Origin: an uncultured Bacteroidia bacterium
Lineage (GTDB): Bacteria; Bacteroidota; Bacteroidia; Bacteroidales; CAJPTX01
DNA length: 64,000 nucleotides
Direction of reading: 5' to 3'
NCBI GenBank assembly: GCA_963543925.1
Contig: CAUUCP010000002.1
Coordinates: 9,485 to 73,484 of the forward strand
How positions within the stretch are numbered: position 1 is the first letter of the stretch; each line of letters begins with the position of its first letter. The notes beneath the pieces are model-generated. The model was given only the letters and a program-made list of their open reading frames with translations, ran no database searches and had not been told where the DNA came from. Made by a program: the position numbers and the translations under genes. Below, in pieces: positions 2,363-58,533 of the stretch.

Positions 2363-4000
2363 CTACGATCGCTCCTGTGGGGTGAGTACCTCTTCCGCCC
2401 ACTCGCCTACGTTTCTTGTCTTTTCGTCAAAGCTGACGCCCACCAGATGGATGGGACGCTTCGTCTTGCTGAACTTTGCCAAGTAACCGCTCTCCTTGAG
2501 CTGGGTGATAGCCTCCTGTGGCGTACCTGCAGTCATTACCTTGAACTCGAAAAGGTAGACACGTTTGCGCGTTGTAATCACCATATCTACACGCCCCGTC
2601 GCACAAATCACCTCCGTCTGTACCTGCATATCAAGGACATAGAATAGAGCATAGAGAACGGACTGATAGTAATATTCTCGTAGCGGGCGTCCCTCCTCAC
2701 CACTGGGGATATTCCCGTAATAAATCCCAGCGAGTACCTTTTTTACCCATAAGATCACTTCAGATAAATCCCCTGAGAGAAGGGCGCGATTGATTGACCC
2801 TATAGACTTGGAAATCAACGATTCATCCCCTGAGGTGTAAAACGGCAAAAGGCACTTTAAGAAACCTTGTTGTACCTCCTCATTAGGGAAGCCGAGGATG
2901 AAGTGGTCAAGTTGAGGCAGGTACTTCTTAATCGTCAGGTAGCCAGAATGAAACAACAACGGAATCGTATCCTGCGTGCCGTAACGGAAGTTCTGTAAGG
3001 ACGAGCTGTCCATTTCCACGTCATCATCGAGGTCTGGGATAGGGTAAGTATTATGCAGCAGTGCTTTAACGAGGTACTCTGGCGTAGCGCTTTCGAACCA
3101 GTAATAATCGTAAGTACTTGTTACCAAGACCTTAAGAAGACTAAAGGGGTTATAGACATTCTCTCCCTTACGAGAAAAACAATAACCGTCATACTCTTTC
3201 TTGAGTCGTTGACGTGTCGCTTTTACAGTGGTATTTTCTGCTAGGGCTAGTTTCTCTATCTCGGGCATAAAGTAGTCGGTAAGTTCTTGCTCGGTAAAGC
3301 CGCAGATAGCATCGTAATTATCCAAGAGCGAGACATCCATCAGGTTGTTAGCCCCGCTAAAGAGGTTCATCCTACTGAACTTGGTGATGCCCGTCAGGAA
3401 GGCAAAGCGGATGTAGCGGTCGCAGTGCTTGAGTACCTCGTAGAATGCGCGAAGGAGCAAGCGGTTGGCTTCGTTGAGCTCGGGGTCTTCTAGGGTGAGC
3501 AGGAGGGGTTTGTCATACTCGTCGATGAGGATAACGACCTGCTTTCCAGTCTGTTCGTAGATGGTTTCTATGAGGTAAATAAGTCGCTCTTCGGGAGCAT
3601 CCTCATCACTTACGACTTGGTATCTCTTTTCTAGCTTCTCGAGTTGCTTTAAAAGGCGGTTGGGTAATGTTTCTCGGGTTACATAGTCCCTCGCATTCAG
3701 GTCGAAGTAGAGCACGGGACTTGCCTCCCACGGCTCGCGTTGTTGCCTGCAGGCGATTTCCTCCTCGTGGTCTGCGATATAGAGCCCCTCAAAGAGCTCC
3801 TTCCGTCCTTCGAAATAGGCTTGGAGGGTAGACAGGAAGAGGCTCTTTCCAAAACGGTGGGGGCGGCTGAGGAAAAACGACTTAGAGCCGACACTCATAC
3901 ATTTCACTATGTAGTGAGTCTTGTCTACATAGATCATCCGATTCCTTCGGATATCTTCAAAGGTTTGAACCCCCACGGGTAGCAGACGCTGTTCTGTCAT
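2363..4000 (-). CDS. AAA-ATPase-like / PD-(D/E)XK nuclease fusion protein (PF09820+PF08011-type, recalled from memory), paralog 1
   Basis: 545 aa. Walker A-like SRPHRFGKS, Walker B VVILIDEYD, and a C-terminal nuclease motif GRVDMV...LFEFK. The last 330 or more residues are essentially identical to paralogs 2 and 3. Confidence 0.75.
   Translation of the reverse strand: MTEQRLLPVGVQTFEDIRRNRMIYVDKTHYIVKCMSVGSKSFFLSRPHRFGKSLFLSTLQAYFEGRKELFEGLYIADHEEEIACRQQREPWEASPVLYFDLNARDYVTRETLPNRLLKQLEKLEKRYQVVSDEDAPEERLIYLIETIYEQTGKQVVILIDEYDKPLLLTLEDPELNEANRLLLRAFYEVLKHCDRYIRFAFLTGITKFSRMNLFSGANNLMDVSLLDNYDAICGFTEQELTDYFMPEIEKLALAENTTVKATRQRLKKEYDGYCFSRKGENVYNPFSLLKVLVTSTYDYYWFESATPEYLVKALLHNTYPIPDLDDDVEMDSSSLQNFRYGTQDTIPLLFHSGYLTIKKYLPQLDHFILGFPNEEVQQGFLKCLLPFYTSGDESLISKSIGSINRALLSGDLSEVILWVKKVLAGIYYGNIPSGEEGRPLREYYYQSVLYALFYVLDMQVQTEVICATGRVDMVITTRKRVYLFEFKVMTAGTPQEAITQLKESGYLAKFSKTKRPIHLVGVSFDEKTRNVGEWAEEVLTPQERS
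2471..3352. repeat. 882-bp tract identical to 4189-5070 (direct); 2471-3333 identical to 47763-48625 (inverted)
   Basis: Compared base by base by eye. The first mismatch with copy 2 is at 3353 (gccccg vs gctccg). The offset to copy 2 is 1718 bp. Confidence 0.8.
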
Positions 4001-4092: not shown

Positions 4093-5715
4093 TTACTGAT
4101 TTATGACCTCCTCCGCCCACTCGCCTACGTTCCTCGTCTTCTCGTCAAAGCTGACGCCCACCAGATGCACGGAACGTTTCGTCTTACTGAACTTTGCCAA
4201 GTAACCGCTCTCCTTGAGCTGGGTGATAGCCTCCTGTGGCGTACCTGCAGTCATTACCTTGAACTCGAAAAGGTAGACACGTTTGCGCGTTGTAATCACC
4301 ATATCTACACGCCCCGTCGCACAAATCACCTCCGTCTGTACCTGCATATCAAGGACATAGAATAGAGCATAGAGAACGGACTGATAGTAATATTCTCGTA
4401 GCGGGCGTCCCTCCTCACCACTGGGGATATTCCCGTAATAAATCCCAGCGAGTACCTTTTTTACCCATAAGATCACTTCAGATAAATCCCCTGAGAGAAG
4501 GGCGCGATTGATTGACCCTATAGACTTGGAAATCAACGATTCATCCCCTGAGGTGTAAAACGGCAAAAGGCACTTTAAGAAACCTTGTTGTACCTCCTCA
4601 TTAGGGAAGCCGAGGATGAAGTGGTCAAGTTGAGGCAGGTACTTCTTAATCGTCAGGTAGCCAGAATGAAACAACAACGGAATCGTATCCTGCGTGCCGT
4701 AACGGAAGTTCTGTAAGGACGAGCTGTCCATTTCCACGTCATCATCGAGGTCTGGGATAGGGTAAGTATTATGCAGCAGTGCTTTAACGAGGTACTCTGG
4801 CGTAGCGCTTTCGAACCAGTAATAATCGTAAGTACTTGTTACCAAGACCTTAAGAAGACTAAAGGGGTTATAGACATTCTCTCCCTTACGAGAAAAACAA
4901 TAACCGTCATACTCTTTCTTGAGTCGTTGACGTGTCGCTTTTACAGTGGTATTTTCTGCTAGGGCTAGTTTCTCTATCTCGGGCATAAAGTAGTCGGTAA
5001 GTTCTTGCTCGGTAAAGCCGCAGATAGCATCGTAATTATCCAAGAGCGAGACATCCATCAGGTTGTTAGCTCCGCTAAAGAGGTTCATCCTACTGAACTG
5101 GGTGATGCCCGTTAGGAAGGCAAAGCGGATATAGCGGTCGCAGTTCTTGAGTATCTCGTAGAAGGCGCGGAGGAGCAAGCGGTTGGCTTCGTTCAACTTT
5201 GGGTCTTCTAGGGTGAGTAGGAGCGGCTTGTCATACTCGTCTATTAGGATAACGATCTGTTTACCTGTATTTTCGTAGACACTTTCGATCACATTATTGA
5301 ATCGTCCAGGGAAGGTTCTTGCGACGCCCTCACTACCGTAACGTCTTTCCATCGCAGTGAGCTGCCGATCTAGCAAATTCTCCAAGGCAGTATTATCTGT
5401 AAACCGCTCAGCGTTCATATTGAAGTAGAGCACGGGACTCGCCTCCCACGGCTCGCGTTGTTGCCAGCGGGCGATCTCTTCTTCGCGCTCTGCGATGTAG
5501 AGCCCCTCAAAGAGCTCCTTTTTTCCTTCAAAGTAAGCTTGTAGCGTCGAGAGGAAGAGGCTCTTACCGAAACGGTGGGGGCGGCTAAGGAAGAAGCACT
5601 CACCCAGAAGCAAAAGCTTCTCTATGTATTGAGTTTTATCTACGTAGACACTCCCTTTATTCCGTAGCTTCTCGAATGTCTGTCCAGTGATGGGTAAGTT
5701 GCGCGGTGGGGTCAT
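4093..5715 (-). CDS. AAA-ATPase-like / PD-(D/E)XK nuclease fusion protein, paralog 2
   Basis: Same architecture as paralog 1. I prefer the ATG at 5715 (MTPPRNLPITG...) over the track's TTG at 5742, because the -7 box at 5740-5747 overlaps that TTG and paralog 1 starts at the equivalent Met. Confidence 0.75.
   Translation of the reverse strand: MTPPRNLPITGQTFEKLRNKGSVYVDKTQYIEKLLLLGECFFLSRPHRFGKSLFLSTLQAYFEGKKELFEGLYIAEREEEIARWQQREPWEASPVLYFNMNAERFTDNTALENLLDRQLTAMERRYGSEGVARTFPGRFNNVIESVYENTGKQIVILIDEYDKPLLLTLEDPKLNEANRLLLRAFYEILKNCDRYIRFAFLTGITQFSRMNLFSGANNLMDVSLLDNYDAICGFTEQELTDYFMPEIEKLALAENTTVKATRQRLKKEYDGYCFSRKGENVYNPFSLLKVLVTSTYDYYWFESATPEYLVKALLHNTYPIPDLDDDVEMDSSSLQNFRYGTQDTIPLLFHSGYLTIKKYLPQLDHFILGFPNEEVQQGFLKCLLPFYTSGDESLISKSIGSINRALLSGDLSEVILWVKKVLAGIYYGNIPSGEEGRPLREYYYQSVLYALFYVLDMQVQTEVICATGRVDMVITTRKRVYLFEFKVMTAGTPQEAITQLKESGYLAKFSKTKRSVHLVGVSFDEKTRNVGEWAEEVINQ
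4189..5070. repeat. 882-bp tract identical to 2471-3352
   Basis: See the 2471-3352 entry. Confidence 0.8.
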
Positions 5716-47098: not shown

Positions 47099-48733
47099 AT
47101 GACCGAACAGCGCAACTTACCCATCACTGGACAGACATTCGAGAAGCTACGGAATAAAGGGAGTGTCTACGTAGATAAAACTCAATACATAGAGAAGCTT
47201 TTACTTCTGGGTGAGTGCTTCTTTCTCAGCCGTCCCCACCGTTTCGGTAAGAGCCTCTTCCTATCTACCCTCCAATCCTATTTCGAAGGACGAAAAGAGC
47301 TCTTCGAGGGGCTCTACATCGCAGACCACGAAGAGGAGATCGCCCGCAAGCAACGACGCGAGCCGTGGGAGGCAAGTCCCGTGCTCTACTTCGACCTGAA
47401 TGCGAGGGACTATGTAACCCGAGAAACATTACCCAACCGCCTTTTAAAGCAACTCGAGAAGCTAGAAAAGAGATACCAAGTCGTAAGTGATGAGGATGCT
47501 CCCGAAGAGCGACTTATTTACCTCATAGAAACCATCTACGAACAGACTGGAAAGCAGGTCGTTATCCTCATAGACGAGTATGACAAGCCCCTCCTATTCA
47601 CCCTAGAAGACCCAGAGTTGAACGAAGCCAACCGCTTGCTCCTTCGCGCATTCTATGAGGTACTTAAGCATTGCGATCGCTACATCCGCTTTGCATTCCT
47701 GACGGGCATCACCAAGTTCAGTAGGATGAACCTCTTTAGCGGAGCTAACAACTTGAAGGATATCTCGCTCTTGGATAATTACGATGCTATCTGCGGCTTT
47801 ACCGAGCAAGAACTTACCGACTACTTTATGCCCGAGATAGAGAAACTAGCCCTAGCAGAAAATACCACTGTAAAAGCGACACGTCAACGACTCAAGAAAG
47901 AGTATGACGGTTATTGTTTTTCTCGTAAGGGAGAGAATGTCTATAACCCCTTTAGTCTTCTTAAGGTCTTGGTAACAAGTACTTACGATTATTACTGGTT
48001 CGAAAGCGCTACGCCAGAGTACCTCGTTAAAGCACTGCTGCATAATACTTACCCTATCCCAGACCTCGATGATGACGTGGAAATGGACAGCTCGTCCTTA
48101 CAGAACTTCCGTTACGGCACGCAGGATACGATTCCGTTGTTGTTTCATTCTGGCTACCTGACGATTAAGAAGTACCTGCCTCAACTTGACCACTTCATCC
48201 TCGGCTTCCCTAATGAGGAGGTACAACAAGGTTTCTTAAAGTGCCTTTTGCCGTTTTACACCTCAGGGGATGAATCGTTGATTTCCAAGTCTATAGGGTC
48301 AATCAATCGCGCCCTTCTCTCAGGGGATTTATCTGAAGTGATCTTATGGGTAAAAAAGGTACTCGCTGGGATTTATTACGGGAATATCCCCAGTGGTGAG
48401 GAGGGACGCCCGCTACGAGAATATTACTATCAGTCCGTTCTCTATGCTCTATTCTATGTCCTTGATATGCAGGTACAGACGGAGGTGATTTGTGCGACGG
48501 GGCGTGTAGATATGGTGATTACAACGCGCAAACGTGTCTACCTTTTCGAGTTCAAGGTAATGACTGCAGGTACGCCACAGGAGGCTATCACCCAGCTCAA
48601 GGAGAGCGGTTACTTGGCAAAGTTCAGTAAGACGAAACGTTCCATCCATCTGGTGGGCGTCAGCTTTGACGAGAAAACGAGGAACGTAGGCGAGTGGGCG
48701 GAAGAGGTACTCACGCCACAGGAGCTGTTGTAG
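47099..48733 (+). CDS. AAA-ATPase-like / PD-(D/E)XK nuclease fusion protein, paralog 3 (mosaic)
   Basis: Start at MTEQRNLPITG. The first ~40 residues (about 50 in the track ORF numbering) resemble paralog 2, residues from about 55 to 220 (about 60-230 in track numbering) resemble paralog 1, and the C-terminal 290 or more are identical to both. Confidence 0.75.
   Translation: MTEQRNLPITGQTFEKLRNKGSVYVDKTQYIEKLLLLGECFFLSRPHRFGKSLFLSTLQSYFEGRKELFEGLYIADHEEEIARKQRREPWEASPVLYFDLNARDYVTRETLPNRLLKQLEKLEKRYQVVSDEDAPEERLIYLIETIYEQTGKQVVILIDEYDKPLLFTLEDPELNEANRLLLRAFYEVLKHCDRYIRFAFLTGITKFSRMNLFSGANNLKDISLLDNYDAICGFTEQELTDYFMPEIEKLALAENTTVKATRQRLKKEYDGYCFSRKGENVYNPFSLLKVLVTSTYDYYWFESATPEYLVKALLHNTYPIPDLDDDVEMDSSSLQNFRYGTQDTIPLLFHSGYLTIKKYLPQLDHFILGFPNEEVQQGFLKCLLPFYTSGDESLISKSIGSINRALLSGDLSEVILWVKKVLAGIYYGNIPSGEEGRPLREYYYQSVLYALFYVLDMQVQTEVICATGRVDMVITTRKRVYLFEFKVMTAGTPQEAITQLKESGYLAKFSKTKRSIHLVGVSFDEKTRNVGEWAEEVLTPQELL
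47763..48625. repeat. 863-bp tract identical to the reverse complement of 2471-3333 (and of 4189-5051)
   Basis: Compared by eye. The flanking mismatch is at 47762 (gatAtc vs gatGtc). Confidence 0.8.
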
Positions 48734-54472: not shown

Positions 54473-54521
54473 AGCAACAAAAGAAAATAGGACGTCGTTG
54501 ACGCCCTATTTCTTTGTAATT

Positions 54522-56288
54522 CTATTTCTGTATCCAGATATCCCCCTCGACTTCTACATCCTGAAATACTCCATTTGGGAACTTCACCTTTATCTTCACC
54601 CTAAGGTGCTTAGTTTCAATTCCTGCAGAGAACTCGCCGACGGCCTCCTTAAACTTCTCGCGATCTGTGACTATGAGCTCGCCCAATTTCCTCTCCGCAT
54701 GCGCTGTTTCCACATTAGAAGACAAGCTCACTTGAAGGAAATCTGCCGCCGCGCCTACCACTTCACATTCAATATCTGACTGAGACGCCAATGCCCCAAA
54801 ACTCAAATGTGGTGTGATTAATCTTTCAGAGTCTGGAGAGAGCTCTGGTTCGATGAGTAAATCAAAGCTATTACTTTCAACCGTCCCGACCCCAAGCCCC
54901 AATTTCAAACTCAATTGATCTTGCGAGAGCATCTTAAGATTTTCTGGGATCGGATACTCAATCACTACTGGCGCAATATCCTTTCCTACCGCCGTAATAC
55001 GGAGCTTACCCTTGGGGAAGACAAAACTTGACGTAAGTTTTAAAGTCGGTTTCAAAGCTACAGCCTTGGTGGGGTCAACAGTTGATCCCCAAACAAGGGG
55101 ATCTGTCACCTGAAGATAATCCGACAACTTACGCGAATCCGTGGATTCATTGAGAATTTCAATCTTGGAAATTTTCAAGACCTCCTTTCCGCTGGAGATT
55201 ACTGGGTAACGCCAACGCATCAGATTTGTAAACCCGAACTCACCTACAAGATCCCCACCTTTCGGATAAAACGAATTCATCCAAGGCCACGAAAGAGCAT
55301 ATTCTCCTGCGCGTTGTATGGGTCTTGGCTTTACCACTACATCCTCGGGTTTGTGTAACGTCTCGATAGCTCCTTCCTTCGTGATATTCGCTACGACCTT
55401 CTCTGGCTCGGTACGATCTCGGAATTGGAAGGTACTCTCCACCTCGCACTTATCGATGGTAAAGTAAGTCTCCTTTTCTCCGACTTGAAAAAGCTTGTGC
55501 TGTGGAAGTGTTGACGGCTCTTCCCCTCGGAATTTGTTACGGGTCATGACCGCAAACCCGCCACGTGGGCGACGCGTCGTCTCCCCTTCAGGATCGATAA
55601 AAACGTTGACATTCCCACCGCCTATCGTAAAGCGATCGGTAAGTTGGTAAGAGGGTTCTTCGGTACGCATTGAACGACGGAAAGAGCGTACCGCAAAACC
55701 ACCACGCGGGCGACGCGTCTCCTCGGTCACGGGGACATTGATCGTTACCGCATCTTCATAAACCGAAAAGAGGGGTGCACCGTCGCTATTTTGCACCTGA
55801 AAGATGGATTCTCCAGCTTCCTTTCCCTTTTTCGTTCCCTTGATCAAAGAGACAGAATTCGCATAAAGCGCATAGGGAACCGCCTGCATCGGGACAGGAT
55901 CGCCCAGAGAAACAAACGTTCCATTGGCTGCGATATCGACTTCGGCAGCAACACGAAGTCCTTTTTCCCATGGCACAGTCTCCATGCTACCTTGCTGCAC
56001 GCTCCCCTGCCCAGCGCCAACCGTCACGTTCACGAGCCCAGCCTTAGTTGTCTTAGCTGAAATTTGCTCGGCATAGAGCACCTGCCCTGCAAGATCTTGA
56101 AGCTTTACCAAGAGCTTCACTGTTTTTTCTGCAACAGGCTTCCCCTCTTGATAGATCAAGGCTGTGTAGTTGAATGCCGTCGGTAACGTAGCTGCAGAGA
56201 GCTGATCGTCCACCACATCCCCTGCTTCCCCCTGTGCGTGGAGTAGGAAAGGAGCAAATAGCGTAAAAAGTAAGAATAGATACTTCAT
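54522..56288 (-). CDS. secreted hypothetical protein, tandem paralog A
   Basis: Start at MKYLFLLFTLFAPFLLHAQ (signal peptide), supported by a -7 box 24 nt upstream. The N-terminal 340 aa or so are about 90+ percent identical to paralog B, while the C-terminal 250 aa or so are divergent. Confidence 0.7.
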   Translation of the reverse strand: MKYLFLLFTLFAPFLLHAQGEAGDVVDDQLSAATLPTAFNYTALIYQEGKPVAEKTVKLLVKLQDLAGQVLYAEQISAKTTKAGLVNVTVGAGQGSVQQGSMETVPWEKGLRVAAEVDIAANGTFVSLGDPVPMQAVPYALYANSVSLIKGTKKGKEAGESIFQVQNSDGAPLFSVYEDAVTINVPVTEETRRPRGGFAVRSFRRSMRTEEPSYQLTDRFTIGGGNVNVFIDPEGETTRRPRGGFAVMTRNKFRGEEPSTLPQHKLFQVGEKETYFTIDKCEVESTFQFRDRTEPEKVVANITKEGAIETLHKPEDVVVKPRPIQRAGEYALSWPWMNSFYPKGGDLVGEFGFTNLMRWRYPVISSGKEVLKISKIEILNESTDSRKLSDYLQVTDPLVWGSTVDPTKAVALKPTLKLTSSFVFPKGKLRITAVGKDIAPVVIEYPIPENLKMLSQDQLSLKLGLGVGTVESNSFDLLIEPELSPDSERLITPHLSFGALASQSDIECEVVGAAADFLQVSLSSNVETAHAERKLGELIVTDREKFKEAVGEFSAGIETKHLRVKIKVKFPNGVFQDVEVEGDIWIQK

Positions 56289-56312
56289 CGTTGTTAGTTC
56301 TTTTTGTTCCCA

Positions 56313-56320
56313 CAAATGTA
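56313..56320 (-). promoter_or_regulatory. -7 box TACATTTG for paralog A
   Basis: TAnnTTTG match 24 nt upstream of the ATG at 56288. Paralog B has TATCTTCG (one mismatch) at 58192-58199 in the same geometry. Confidence 0.55.
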
Positions 56321-56371
56321 CAACAATCTCACAGACATTCTCACCTGCCATTGACGAGCCCAAAACGTCGC

Positions 56372-58165
56372 CTAGGGTTTGAAACGTATCGTTTTATTGA
56401 CTATAACGGGGGGATAAATGTCTCGAGGGAATTTCATTTTTATCTTAACTCTCAAAAGACGTTCGGTAGCTCCTGGTCTTGGTGCTCCTAACACTTCTTG
56501 AAGCTTTGTAACATCGGTGACTTGTAGCGTCATAAACCTATTAGAGAGGCGATCCTTTTCTTGCACCAATTCAAGCTTTAAGAAATTGTCATACCCATCA
56601 AGAAGCGAATAGCCGATATGGAGATTGCTAATTACATCAAGAAAGTTGGCGCCATCGGTAATTCGCATATCTCTAGGATTCGGCAATAGGAAATTGATCA
56701 TCTGTCCTTGGGAGACATCGTATATCCGATCTTTTTCACTTTCATGGAGAAAGAGTTCCAAATTATCGGCACTCAACATTTTCATATTATCAGGAACAGA
56801 GAAGATAATACTATCCAAAGAGGTAGCGAGTTTGGGGCTAGAATAGAAGATACAAATCTTTCCTTTCGGGAAGACAAAATCAGGTGTCAAGCAGAATGTA
56901 GAATCCAAGACTACTCCCATAACATCGTGGACTTCATACCGTTCGTCGGACTTATATAACATATTTCTGAAATGATGCACCTTGATATAATCGGAAAGTC
57001 TCCTTGTATCCCCTTCATTGTTTATGATTTCCATCCTCTGAATCTGCATTGTATCCCTTCCCTTTGTAACCAGAGGGACACGCCAACGGATCAGATTCGT
57101 GAAACCAAATTGTCCCTCCACAGGGAACTTATAAGCCTTCATATAAAGGTGCTCTATCGGCCATGGCCATTGGAGACTGTACTCTCCGACCCGTTGTACA
57201 GGTCTTGGCTTTACTACCACATCTTCTGGTTTGTGCAGTGTCTCGATGGTTCCTTCCTTTGTAATGTTAGCTACAACTTTTTCTGGCTCAGCACGGTCTC
57301 GGAATTGGAAGGTACTCCCCACCTCGCACTTGTCGATAGTAAAATAGGTTTCTTTTTCTCCGACTTGAAAAAGCTTGTGCTGTGGAAGCGTCGAGGGCTC
57401 TTCCTCGCGGAAATGGTTACGCGTCATGACCGCAAAACCTCCACGTGGGCGACGCGTCTCCCCTTCAGGATCGATAAAGACGTTGACATTCCCACCGCCT
57501 ATCGTAAAGCGATCTGTAAGTTGGTAGCCAGATTCCTCTGCACGCATTGAACGACGGAAAGAGCGTACCGCAAACCCTCCACGTGGGCGACGCGTCTCCT
57601 CGGTCACTGGGACATTGATCGTTACCGCATCTTCATAAACCGAAAAGAGGGGGGCACCCTCGCTATTTTGCACCTGAAAGATCGACTCGCCAGCTTCCTT
57701 TCCCTTTTTCGTTCCCTTGACTAAAGAAACGGTATTGGCATAAAGAGCGTAGGGCACGGCTTGCATCAGGACAGGAGACCCCAACGAAACAAAGCTCCCA
57801 CTCCCTTCGATATCCACTTCGGCAGCAACACGAAGACCTTTTTCCCATGGCACAGCCTCCATACTTCCTTGCTGCACGCTCCCCTGCCCGGCGCCCACCG
57901 TTACGTTCACAAGCCCAGCCTTGGTCGTCTTGGCAGAGATTTGTTCGGAGTAAAGTACCTGCCCTGCTGGGTCTTGAAGCTTTACCAAGAGCTTCACTGT
58001 CTTTTCTGCAACGGGTTTTCCTTCTTGATAGATCAAGGCTGTGTAGTTGAATGCTGTCGGTAGCGTAGCTGCGGAGAGCTGATCATCCACCACATCCCCA
58101 CCTGTCTCCTGCGCATGGAGTAAACAAGAAACCGATAGCATCAGGAGCAAAAATAGATACTTCAT
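56372..58165 (-). CDS. secreted hypothetical protein, tandem paralog B
   Basis: 597 aa with signal peptide MKYLFLLLMLSVSCLLHAQ. See paralog A. Confidence 0.7.
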   Translation of the reverse strand: MKYLFLLLMLSVSCLLHAQETGGDVVDDQLSAATLPTAFNYTALIYQEGKPVAEKTVKLLVKLQDPAGQVLYSEQISAKTTKAGLVNVTVGAGQGSVQQGSMEAVPWEKGLRVAAEVDIEGSGSFVSLGSPVLMQAVPYALYANTVSLVKGTKKGKEAGESIFQVQNSEGAPLFSVYEDAVTINVPVTEETRRPRGGFAVRSFRRSMRAEESGYQLTDRFTIGGGNVNVFIDPEGETRRPRGGFAVMTRNHFREEEPSTLPQHKLFQVGEKETYFTIDKCEVGSTFQFRDRAEPEKVVANITKEGTIETLHKPEDVVVKPRPVQRVGEYSLQWPWPIEHLYMKAYKFPVEGQFGFTNLIRWRVPLVTKGRDTMQIQRMEIINNEGDTRRLSDYIKVHHFRNMLYKSDERYEVHDVMGVVLDSTFCLTPDFVFPKGKICIFYSSPKLATSLDSIIFSVPDNMKMLSADNLELFLHESEKDRIYDVSQGQMINFLLPNPRDMRITDGANFLDVISNLHIGYSLLDGYDNFLKLELVQEKDRLSNRFMTLQVTDVTKLQEVLGAPRPGATERLLRVKIKMKFPRDIYPPVIVNKTIRFKP

Positions 58166-58464
58166 GGGTGTATTAGTCTTTCTTATTTGTACGAAGATAC
58201 AACATTTTACCTATTCATTCCATCGGCAAGAAGACCTCCGCTGCTTATTTAGCGATATATATAAGGAAGAGCATATTATATACGCTCCTTTATCATATTC
58301 ACAGAATATTCCCAACGTTTTTACTATGGTTCTCACATCTCTTGGCGAATGCTCCTACGAAAGATGTGAGGTAAAACAAGCGCAAGAGCGGGAAATCCGA
58401 ACGAGTTCCCCACTAGCGTTCTACGAAGCTCCCGTAAAGCATCTTCGTGGAGACACTTTCCTTC

Positions 58465-58506
58465 AAAAACCAAGAACGCTACCACGTACGACGTAGTAGC
58501 GTTCTT
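58465..58506 (-). terminator. terminator of the rnf operon
   Basis: On the minus strand: AAGAACGCTAC-loop-GTAGCGTTCTT followed by GGTTTTT. Confidence 0.7.
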
Positions 58507-58533
58507 GTCAAAAGAGAAAATCACAGGATCTGG

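Follow-up and report, generated by a model that had tools for sequence, protein, structure and literature searches.

Tandem secreted paralogs with alike N-terminal parts and anciently diverged tips in an uncultured Bacteroidia bacterium: putative short relatives of the MAT-type fibres

Organization of the locus and anatomy of the encoded proteins

Two paralogous genes, here termed A and B, lie in tandem on the minus strand of a 64,000-nucleotide stretch of the genome of an uncultured Bacteroidia bacterium (GenBank assembly GCA_963543925.1, contig CAUUCP010000002.1, positions 9,485 to 73,484). This whole stretch is referred to as the window, and all positions without a locus prefix are window positions. 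Gene B is located upstream of gene A, and both are intact open reading frames (ORFs) encoding proteins with a predicted signal peptide. The two proteins are alike up to a domain boundary near residue 337 and strongly divergent beyond it. The features of the locus and of the encoded proteins, in the direction of transcription, are as follows:

58471..58507, minus strand: strong hairpin terminator with a 17-bp stem, which ends the rnf operon upstream of B
58192..58199, minus strand: -7 box with one mismatch (TATCTTCG), 27 nt before the ATG of B
56372..58165, minus strand: gene B (P0002), the upstream paralog, 597 aa, intact ORF
58109..58165, minus strand: predicted type I signal peptide of B, residues 1-19 (...LLHA/QE), without lipobox, read from the sequence, with a modelled helix at residues 2-16 and a family consensus that ends in AQ
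57761..58075, minus strand: base domain of B, residues ~31-135, β-rich and Ig-like, homologous to the N domain of mosaic adhesive trimer (MAT) fibres as judged by a match to NF053851
57416..57718, minus strand: stalk of B, residues ~150-250, two repeats of ~40-45 residues, each ending in TRRPRGGFAV
57155..57415, minus strand: neck of B, residues 251-337, conserved in the family, with a low-confidence monomer model; the homogenized tract ends here
56375..57154, minus strand: tip of B, residues 338-597, two tandem β-sandwich domains in the structure model, 34% identical to the tip of A
56313..56320, minus strand: exact Bacteroidetes -7 box (TAnnTTTG; TACATTTG), 25 nt before the ATG of A, inside the B-A spacer
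54522..56288, minus strand: gene A (P0001), the downstream paralog, 588 aa
55275..56288, minus strand: signal peptide, base, repeats and neck of A, residues 1-338, the tract kept similar to B (92% amino acid identity; repeat families D1 and D2)
55536-55841, minus strand: repeats of A with RGGFAV
54525..55274, minus strand: tip of A, residues 339-588, homologous to the tip of B and anciently diverged
54484..54512, minus strand: terminator-like hairpin with a T-run, directly past the stop codon of A

The MKYLFLL start of gene A is preferred over an upstream TTG at position 56363 because the resulting signal peptide aligns with that of B and of the whole family. From start to start the two genes are 1877 nt apart, matching the offset of about 1880 bp estimated in the first-pass annotation, which had been made from the sequence without database searches. 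That annotation had also assigned a signal peptide and a promoter box to each gene; both N-termini indeed resemble signal peptides, ending in LLHAQ, and both boxes are found at the positions listed above. The spacer between B and A comprises 83 nt and contains no terminator, and the hairpin past the stop codon of A likely marks the end of a B-A unit. The pair is flanked by the rnf operon and a PAP2 gene, the latter convergent and located beyond A and its terminator. No further copies of the A/B gene occur in the 64-kb window, and a repeat scan of the locus revealed no invertible or switch-type repeats, silent cassettes or invertases. As previously remarked, small immunity-like ORFs are not evident, with none found on the coding strand downstream of A or B.

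Structural prediction was performed for B as an AlphaFold2 (AF2) monomer from a 38-sequence alignment. The base (residues 35-135) was modelled with a predicted local distance difference test score (pLDDT) of 80-91 and residues 350-597 with a pLDDT of 85-94, while residues 136-348 remained below 50, even though they constitute the best-conserved stretch of the family. This poor monomer model is compatible with a stalk that would fold only as an obligate oligomer, although it is no proof of one. When modelled alone, the tip forms two Ig-like β-sandwich domains (pLDDT: 89; predicted template modelling score: 0.83). Foldseek comparison of the tip alone retrieved only generic cadherin (EC1-2) and double-Ig domains with template modelling (TM) scores below 0.3, which indicates a fold class only and no specific solved relative. 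The full-length model, compared against PDB and BFVD, likewise matched only generic multi-Ig proteins (complement C3, cadherins and herpesvirus glycoproteins) at uninformative TM scores of 0.12-0.16. When all PDB sequences were searched with a profile built from the family alignment, no match reached E ≤ 1.

Unequal ages of the N-terminal and C-terminal halves

Aligned end to end by BLASTP, A and B share 64% amino acid identity overall, which is distributed very unevenly. Residues 21-336 are identical at 289/315 positions (92%), whereas from residue 337 to the end only 84/247 positions (34%) are identical, in a colinear alignment. The description of the genes as tandem paralogs with alike N-terminal and divergent C-terminal parts is therefore confirmed. 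The near-identity that had been claimed for the N-terminal part at both levels holds for the protein only, as at the DNA level this part is similar rather than near-identical (83-91% identity per block). DNA similarity sets in ~20 nt upstream of the ATG; past codon ~337, at a ...GEY.L.WPW motif, it collapses. The sequence motifs that had been picked out by eye, namely E.TRRPRGGFAV (twice in each protein), MQAVPYALYA and, near the C-terminus, LRVKIK.KFP, are all present in both proteins.

The difference between the halves extends to silent sites. Among fourfold-degenerate sites at conserved residues, 54/155 (0.35) differ between A and B in the N-terminal half and 20/30 (0.67) in the C-terminal half, the latter value being near saturation (p = 0.002). 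The proportion of synonymous differences (pS, Nei-Gojobori) is correspondingly 0.42 versus 0.82, and for the N-terminal half the synonymous divergence (dS) amounts to 0.62, with a ratio of nonsynonymous to synonymous divergence (dN/dS) of 0.07. The path between A and B measures 0.087 substitutions per site in the N-terminal tree and 1.98 in the C-terminal tree, a C/N ratio of 23, as compared with 1.4-4.1 in 20 other orthologous or paralogous pairs. In the C-terminal tree the two tips fall in the same subclade as weak sisters, and the distance between them equals the distance of either tip to the genes of other species.

A simple old duplication without recombination, in which the N-terminal half is merely under tighter constraint, would be in keeping with the better conservation of the N-terminal half throughout the family (C/N ratio 1.4-4) and with its low dN/dS between A and B. 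Tighter constraint does not, however, account for the difference at silent sites, for an A-B ratio that is 6-10 times the family norm, or for the conflicting trees that segments of the N-terminal half give for A, B and a B orthologue from a second strain (B2, P0113). This explanation is disfavoured, and we regard it as highly improbable. The first-pass annotation had linked such a duplication to C-termini that belong to one family and diverge uniformly along the whole protein; the C-termini of A and B do fall in one family, but the divergence is far from uniform.

The second strain is represented by a contig (L074) carrying the same rnf operon followed by B2. In the upstream DNA and the tip, B2 shares 94-98% DNA identity with B (96-98% in the tip). 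Within the N-terminal half, in contrast, the affiliation of B2 alternates. Between nt 331 and 625 of the gene, five informative sites join it with window A and 26 with B, whereas between nt 626 and 925 the numbers are 27 with window A and seven with B (Fisher p = 3e-7 for the contrast), and a runs test over all 132 informative sites gives P = 0.01. For B against B2, dS amounts to 0.18 in the tip, 0.41 in the N-terminal half and 0.82 across residues 209-308. The exchange of tracts between paralogs within the N-terminal half is the simplest explanation of these sequence patterns. Taken together, three independent lines, namely the silent sites, the tree distances and the second strain, show that the N-terminal half is younger than the C-terminal half and rule out tighter constraint alone. 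The boundary of the homogenized tract coincides with the boundary between stalk and tip. Furthermore, the tip dN/dS of 0.10 between B and B2 indicates purifying selection, and hence a tip that is not hypervariable. The L074 contig breaks 54 nt past the stop codon of the B orthologue (9851), and another contig, L004, starts inside the N-terminal half of a gene of the type of P0004, the nearest relative of the pair. Repeated N-terminal halves may fragment short-read assemblies, and the paralog counts in metagenome-assembled genomes (MAGs) may consequently be underestimates.

It had initially been proposed that the C-terminal modules were swapped and that the AT-rich C-terminal part of B is a replaced cassette, i.e. 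that a recent duplication was followed by the replacement of one tip by a foreign C-terminal cassette from a divergent strain or species. The base composition itself was read correctly, the C-terminal part of B having a GC content of 40.6% against 52.3% in its N-terminal part (A: 45.6% against 52.2%) and a third-position GC content of 0.43 in the tip against 0.50 in the N-terminal half. Its value as a sign of a cassette is slight, since an N- to C-terminal drop of 1-10 points is present in all 23 relatives examined, which belong to other genomes; the AT-richness of the B tip, being common to the family, is thus weak evidence for a foreign origin. A donor search with the B tip (residues 338-597) in a collection of 5.8 billion proteins retrieved nothing closer than 35% identity, and no relative of either tip exceeds this value in the collection. 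The grouping, albeit weak, of both tips in one subclade also speaks against a replacement, as tips derived from one family do not need a foreign cassette. The comparison between strains that had been suggested for the locus is available for L074 only. It shows no replacement of the B tip, and the combination of a retained tip and a patchy N-terminal half is what conversion of the N-terminal half predicts.

Allelic tip exchange does exist in a sister lineage, and this lends the cassette some plausibility. There, P0005 (L002_8001) and P0008 have ~99% identity as far as residue ~430, after which the value falls to ~45%; the last ~160-170 residues of P0008 are identical to those of P0010, and the breakpoint between P0005 and P0008 falls between the two sandwich domains. 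On balance, we consider the replacement of a tip in the window pair rather unlikely.

Family relations and gene arrays of the relatives

For A and B, scans of Pfam, NCBIfam and PHROGs returned nothing besides a weak match to NF053851 (Bdello_MAT_N). No Pfam match was obtained, including none to PF18962 (Por_Secre_tail) or Peptidase_S74, and neither Pfam nor NCBIfam revealed a YadA-type membrane anchor or head domain. The earlier reading that both proteins are devoid of a lipobox and of the C-terminal sorting domain (CTD) of the type IX secretion system (T9SS) is in agreement with these scans, the lipobox being absent from both. The NF053851 match covers residues 31-124 (B: E = 7e-7, 29.2 bits; A: E = 2.9e-5, 23.9 bits) and falls below the curated cut-off of 60 bits in both proteins. 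The same profile is matched by 44/52 distant relatives having the N-terminal 110-250 residues in common with A and B (best E = 1e-14). This chain of relatives supports the base domain as a homologue of the N domain of the MATs, with A and B lying outside the Bdellovibrio subfamily.

In relatives with the same base, the C-terminus consists of Peptidase_S74, YadA-head repeats, Fib_succ_major or collagen-like modules, and these proteins match many phage tail-fibre PHROGs; one of them, P0050, carries PF13884. An exhaustive search with the family profile matched 21,294 representative clusters at a threshold of E ≤ 1e-3, of which 9,439 remained at E ≤ 1e-10. Nearly all of these align at their own N-termini and to positions ~33-250 only, the proteins ranging in length from 180 to more than 3,000 aa, while about a dozen clusters only match the profile over its full length. 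Across the superfamily the number of RGGFAV units varies from 2 to 9, at a spacing of 37-44 residues, A and B having two. In the clustering at 90% identity, gene A falls in a cluster whose representative is an unrelated 56-aa protein (P0114), as a result of which A was missing when homologues were searched with B; this is apparently an artefact of the clustering.

Of the functions put forward at first reading for a constant N-terminus with a variable C-terminus, the receptor-binding or adhesin-like kind is upheld by the base match to NF053851 and by relatives with tail-fibre/S74, YadA-head and Fib_succ_major C-termini. The polymorphic effector, i.e. a toxin with an exchangeable toxic C-terminus, shares the constant-N, variable-C layout, but nothing further. 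Pfam, NCBIfam and PHROGs identify no toxin, RHS, PAAR, TPS or CTD domain and no secretion marker was found. The tip models as two Ig-like sandwiches and is conserved between strains. There is also little place for an immunity gene, as B is followed by the 83-nt spacer and A by a terminator and the convergent PAP2 gene, with no immunity-like ORF at either position. We consequently drop this interpretation as scarcely credible.

The close relatives of the pair are all found in MAGs or metagenomes of uncultured Bacteroidia, where the genes form part of a fixed cassette. This consists of a protein of ~185 aa with a Por_Secre_tail domain, two to three tandem paralogs of the putative fibre gene and a secreted protein of 214 aa. 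The ~185-aa protein comprises a signal peptide, a short conserved segment, a linker rich in proline, aspartate and threonine and the Por_Secre_tail CTD, and directly precedes every fibre gene array in the relatives (L001:396-977, L002:5634-6188 and L079:3652-4200, with equivalents in L003, L006, L007 and L009-L011). The arrays are always followed by the secreted protein, which is 214-217 aa in length (L001:4684-5328, L002:9887-10531 and L079:7948-8601, with equivalents in L005-L009), shares 49-99% identity between loci and belongs to no Pfam family. In the N-domain tree three old clades correspond to array positions 1, 2 and 3, with A and B as sisters in the position-2 clade. P0004, their nearest relative, is a single orphan gene adjoining clpB in another MAG. 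Members of the clusters P0039 (579 aa) and P0007 (604 aa) are located on one 87-kb NCBI contig, and the canonical cassette layout is present in the related contig L079. The species therefore probably possesses a canonical cassette in addition to A and B as an 'orphan' pair.

On L076 (2209-3298), the position-2 fibre gene following P0039 is split into overlapping frames of 257 and 110 aa, reflecting either a frameshift or an assembly error. The window further contains three paralogous copies of an AAA-ATPase-like N-terminal segment (3500-3988, 5218-5703 and 47111-47596; 48-52% identity), which resemble a 167-aa ORF at the end of L002 (L002:10847-11347).

A putative pair of MAT-type fibres

The closest comparison is provided by the MAT fibres of Bdellovibrio bacteriovorus, in particular the subgroup without S74, which includes Bd2133, Bd1334, Bd2439, Bd2734 and Bd2740 (Caulton et al. 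2024, PMC10769870). The N domain of these fibres is invariant, and its partner is an open question (PMC10769870). The supplement of that paper contains no list of Bacteroidota homologues. As in the MATs, the signal peptide of A and B is followed at once by a conserved β-rich N domain (~100-130 aa), a repetitive β-rich stalk and a C-terminal tip that folds on its own and differs from one paralog to the next. The presence of several paralogs in a genome and the swapping of tips in the course of evolution are further shared traits. The differences are nevertheless considerable. A and B are ~590 aa in length rather than ~1,000 aa, their stalk consists of RGGFAV 40-mers without a detectable sequence match to the solved MAT fragments, and their tip is a two-sandwich unit without a solved relative. 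The host is a Bacteroidales bacterium of a non-predatory type, and the genes of the relatives stand in fixed arrays beside a small T9SS-tagged protein. Furthermore, the intertwined trimeric β-prism and the surface location of the MATs are putative in A and B. From the S74 subgroup of the MATs the pair is distinguished by the absence of the C-terminal Peptidase_S74.

T9SS cargo proteins carry a C-terminal sorting domain (Por_Secre_tail or type B), which A and B do not have (no PF18962), and the YadA-type anchor of trimeric autotransporter adhesins is likewise absent, with some distant relatives having YadA head repeats only. The chromosomal Bacteroidota proteins that NCBI names 'tail fiber domain-containing' or that terminate in S74 (P0050, P0065 and P0093, among others) do share the base and the RGGFAV repeats, at 30-45% identity over residues ~33-250. 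Their C-termini are of the phage tail-fibre, Peptidase_S74, YadA-head or Fib_succ_major kinds, unlike the two-sandwich tip of A and B, which belongs to a small family. We therefore favour, with moderate confidence, the interpretation of A and B as a short Bacteroidales variant of the MAT-type fibre kind, in the group without S74.

Under the MAT-type interpretation, A and B are functional, Sec-exported paralogs in a Bacteroidota branch of the MAT-type superfamily, derived from an old tandem duplication of a position-2 array member. By analogy with the Bdellovibrio MATs, the Ig-like base may dock the protein at the cell envelope, the RGGFAV repeats and neck would form a stalk that folds only as an oligomer, probably a trimer, and the two-sandwich tip would be the likely ligand-binding end. 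As the tips keep their ancient divergence, the cell may hold two specificities. Recurrent conversion between the paralogs that stops at the stalk-tip boundary, together with strong purifying selection, has kept the first ~1 kb alike, and an alike base and stalk would allow both proteins to fit the same docking or assembly partners. In this picture, the anatomy of the proteins, their family relations, the different ages of the halves and the tract exchange are documented, and trimer formation, surface display and adhesion are inferred. The ~185-aa T9SS-tagged neighbour in the relatives is a candidate, by its gene association, for the crossing of the outer membrane by the fibres or their attachment to it.

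Several observations weigh against the MAT-type interpretation. The route to the surface lacks a visible marker, with no T9SS CTD, lipobox or outer-membrane anchor in either protein, and a tblastn search of the 64-kb window with the ~185-aa CTD protein and the 214-aa protein found no copy of either. The base match to NF053851 stays below the curated cut-off, and neither the PDB profile search nor Foldseek found a solved structure matching stalk or tip. The trimeric state is putative, and the direction of conversion is inferred, as L074 provides the B orthologue only. Lastly, the RGGFAV repeat can be aligned in register with that of the designed 'Cake' β-propellers of the PQQ type (PDB 6tjc-6tji). 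This match is weak (~15 bits per repeat; summed E = 1e-8; P0123 residues 138-560) and may reflect either a true relation to PQQ-type blades or a shared β-hairpin periodicity only. If the repeats are of the PQQ type, a different stalk architecture is implied.

A and B could in that case be periplasmic or outer-membrane proteins rather than surface fibres, their repeats being propeller blades completed by oligomerization and their sandwiches non-adhesive. The in-register 'Cake' match, the approximately four strands that AF2 places in each ~40-residue repeat and the lack of an outer-membrane export or anchoring signal would all be in accordance with such an arrangement. Repeat-summed scores are, however, inflated, and the repeat numbers, among which 2, 3 and 4 dominate and which range up to 9, are a better fit to a stalk of variable length. 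Moreover, the same base and repeats carry phage tail-fibre, S74 and YadA-head modules in the relatives, and the Bdellovibrio MATs, which have a homologous base, are located on the cell surface (PMC10769870). We judge the propeller arrangement to be improbable and retain the interpretation of A and B as MAT-type fibres.

A more speculative extension, which we put forward tentatively and think unlikely to hold in full, concerns the interplay of the two proteins. Their base and stalk may be kept alike because both rely on common machinery. A and B may co-assemble as mixed trimers displaying combinations of the two tips, or they may compete for a single docking partner, for which the small T9SS-tagged protein ahead of the arrays in the relatives would be the candidate. 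A CTD on a separate protein would then export or anchor fibres that are themselves devoid of a CTD, and domain-bounded conversion would be the mechanism by which orphan fibre genes stay compatible with that protein.

In tandem paralogs that encode surface proteins, segmental gene conversion homogenizes the conserved 5′ parts of the genes, while the variable 3′ parts escape. The window pair resembles such concerted evolution in its homogenized 5′ parts and distinct 3′ parts and differs from rapid antigenic variation in that its conversion tracts are old and patchy (A-B dS about 0.6). It represents a clear case of domain-bounded concerted evolution, in which base and stalk are evolutionarily locked together and tips diverge or are swapped at domain boundaries.

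The family of A and B is currently without a Pfam or NCBIfam assignment, and the present result provides its annotation with a name. Residue ~337 marks the domain boundary at which the tips can be handled as separate units, and the two genes offer a compact pair of ~590 aa for testing fibre assembly, docking and binding. Experimental descriptions of MAT fibres are limited to the predator Bdellovibrio. If the MAT-type interpretation is correct, Bacteroidales of a host-associated type possess a short version with the same base domain, within a superfamily that comprises over 9,000 protein clusters.

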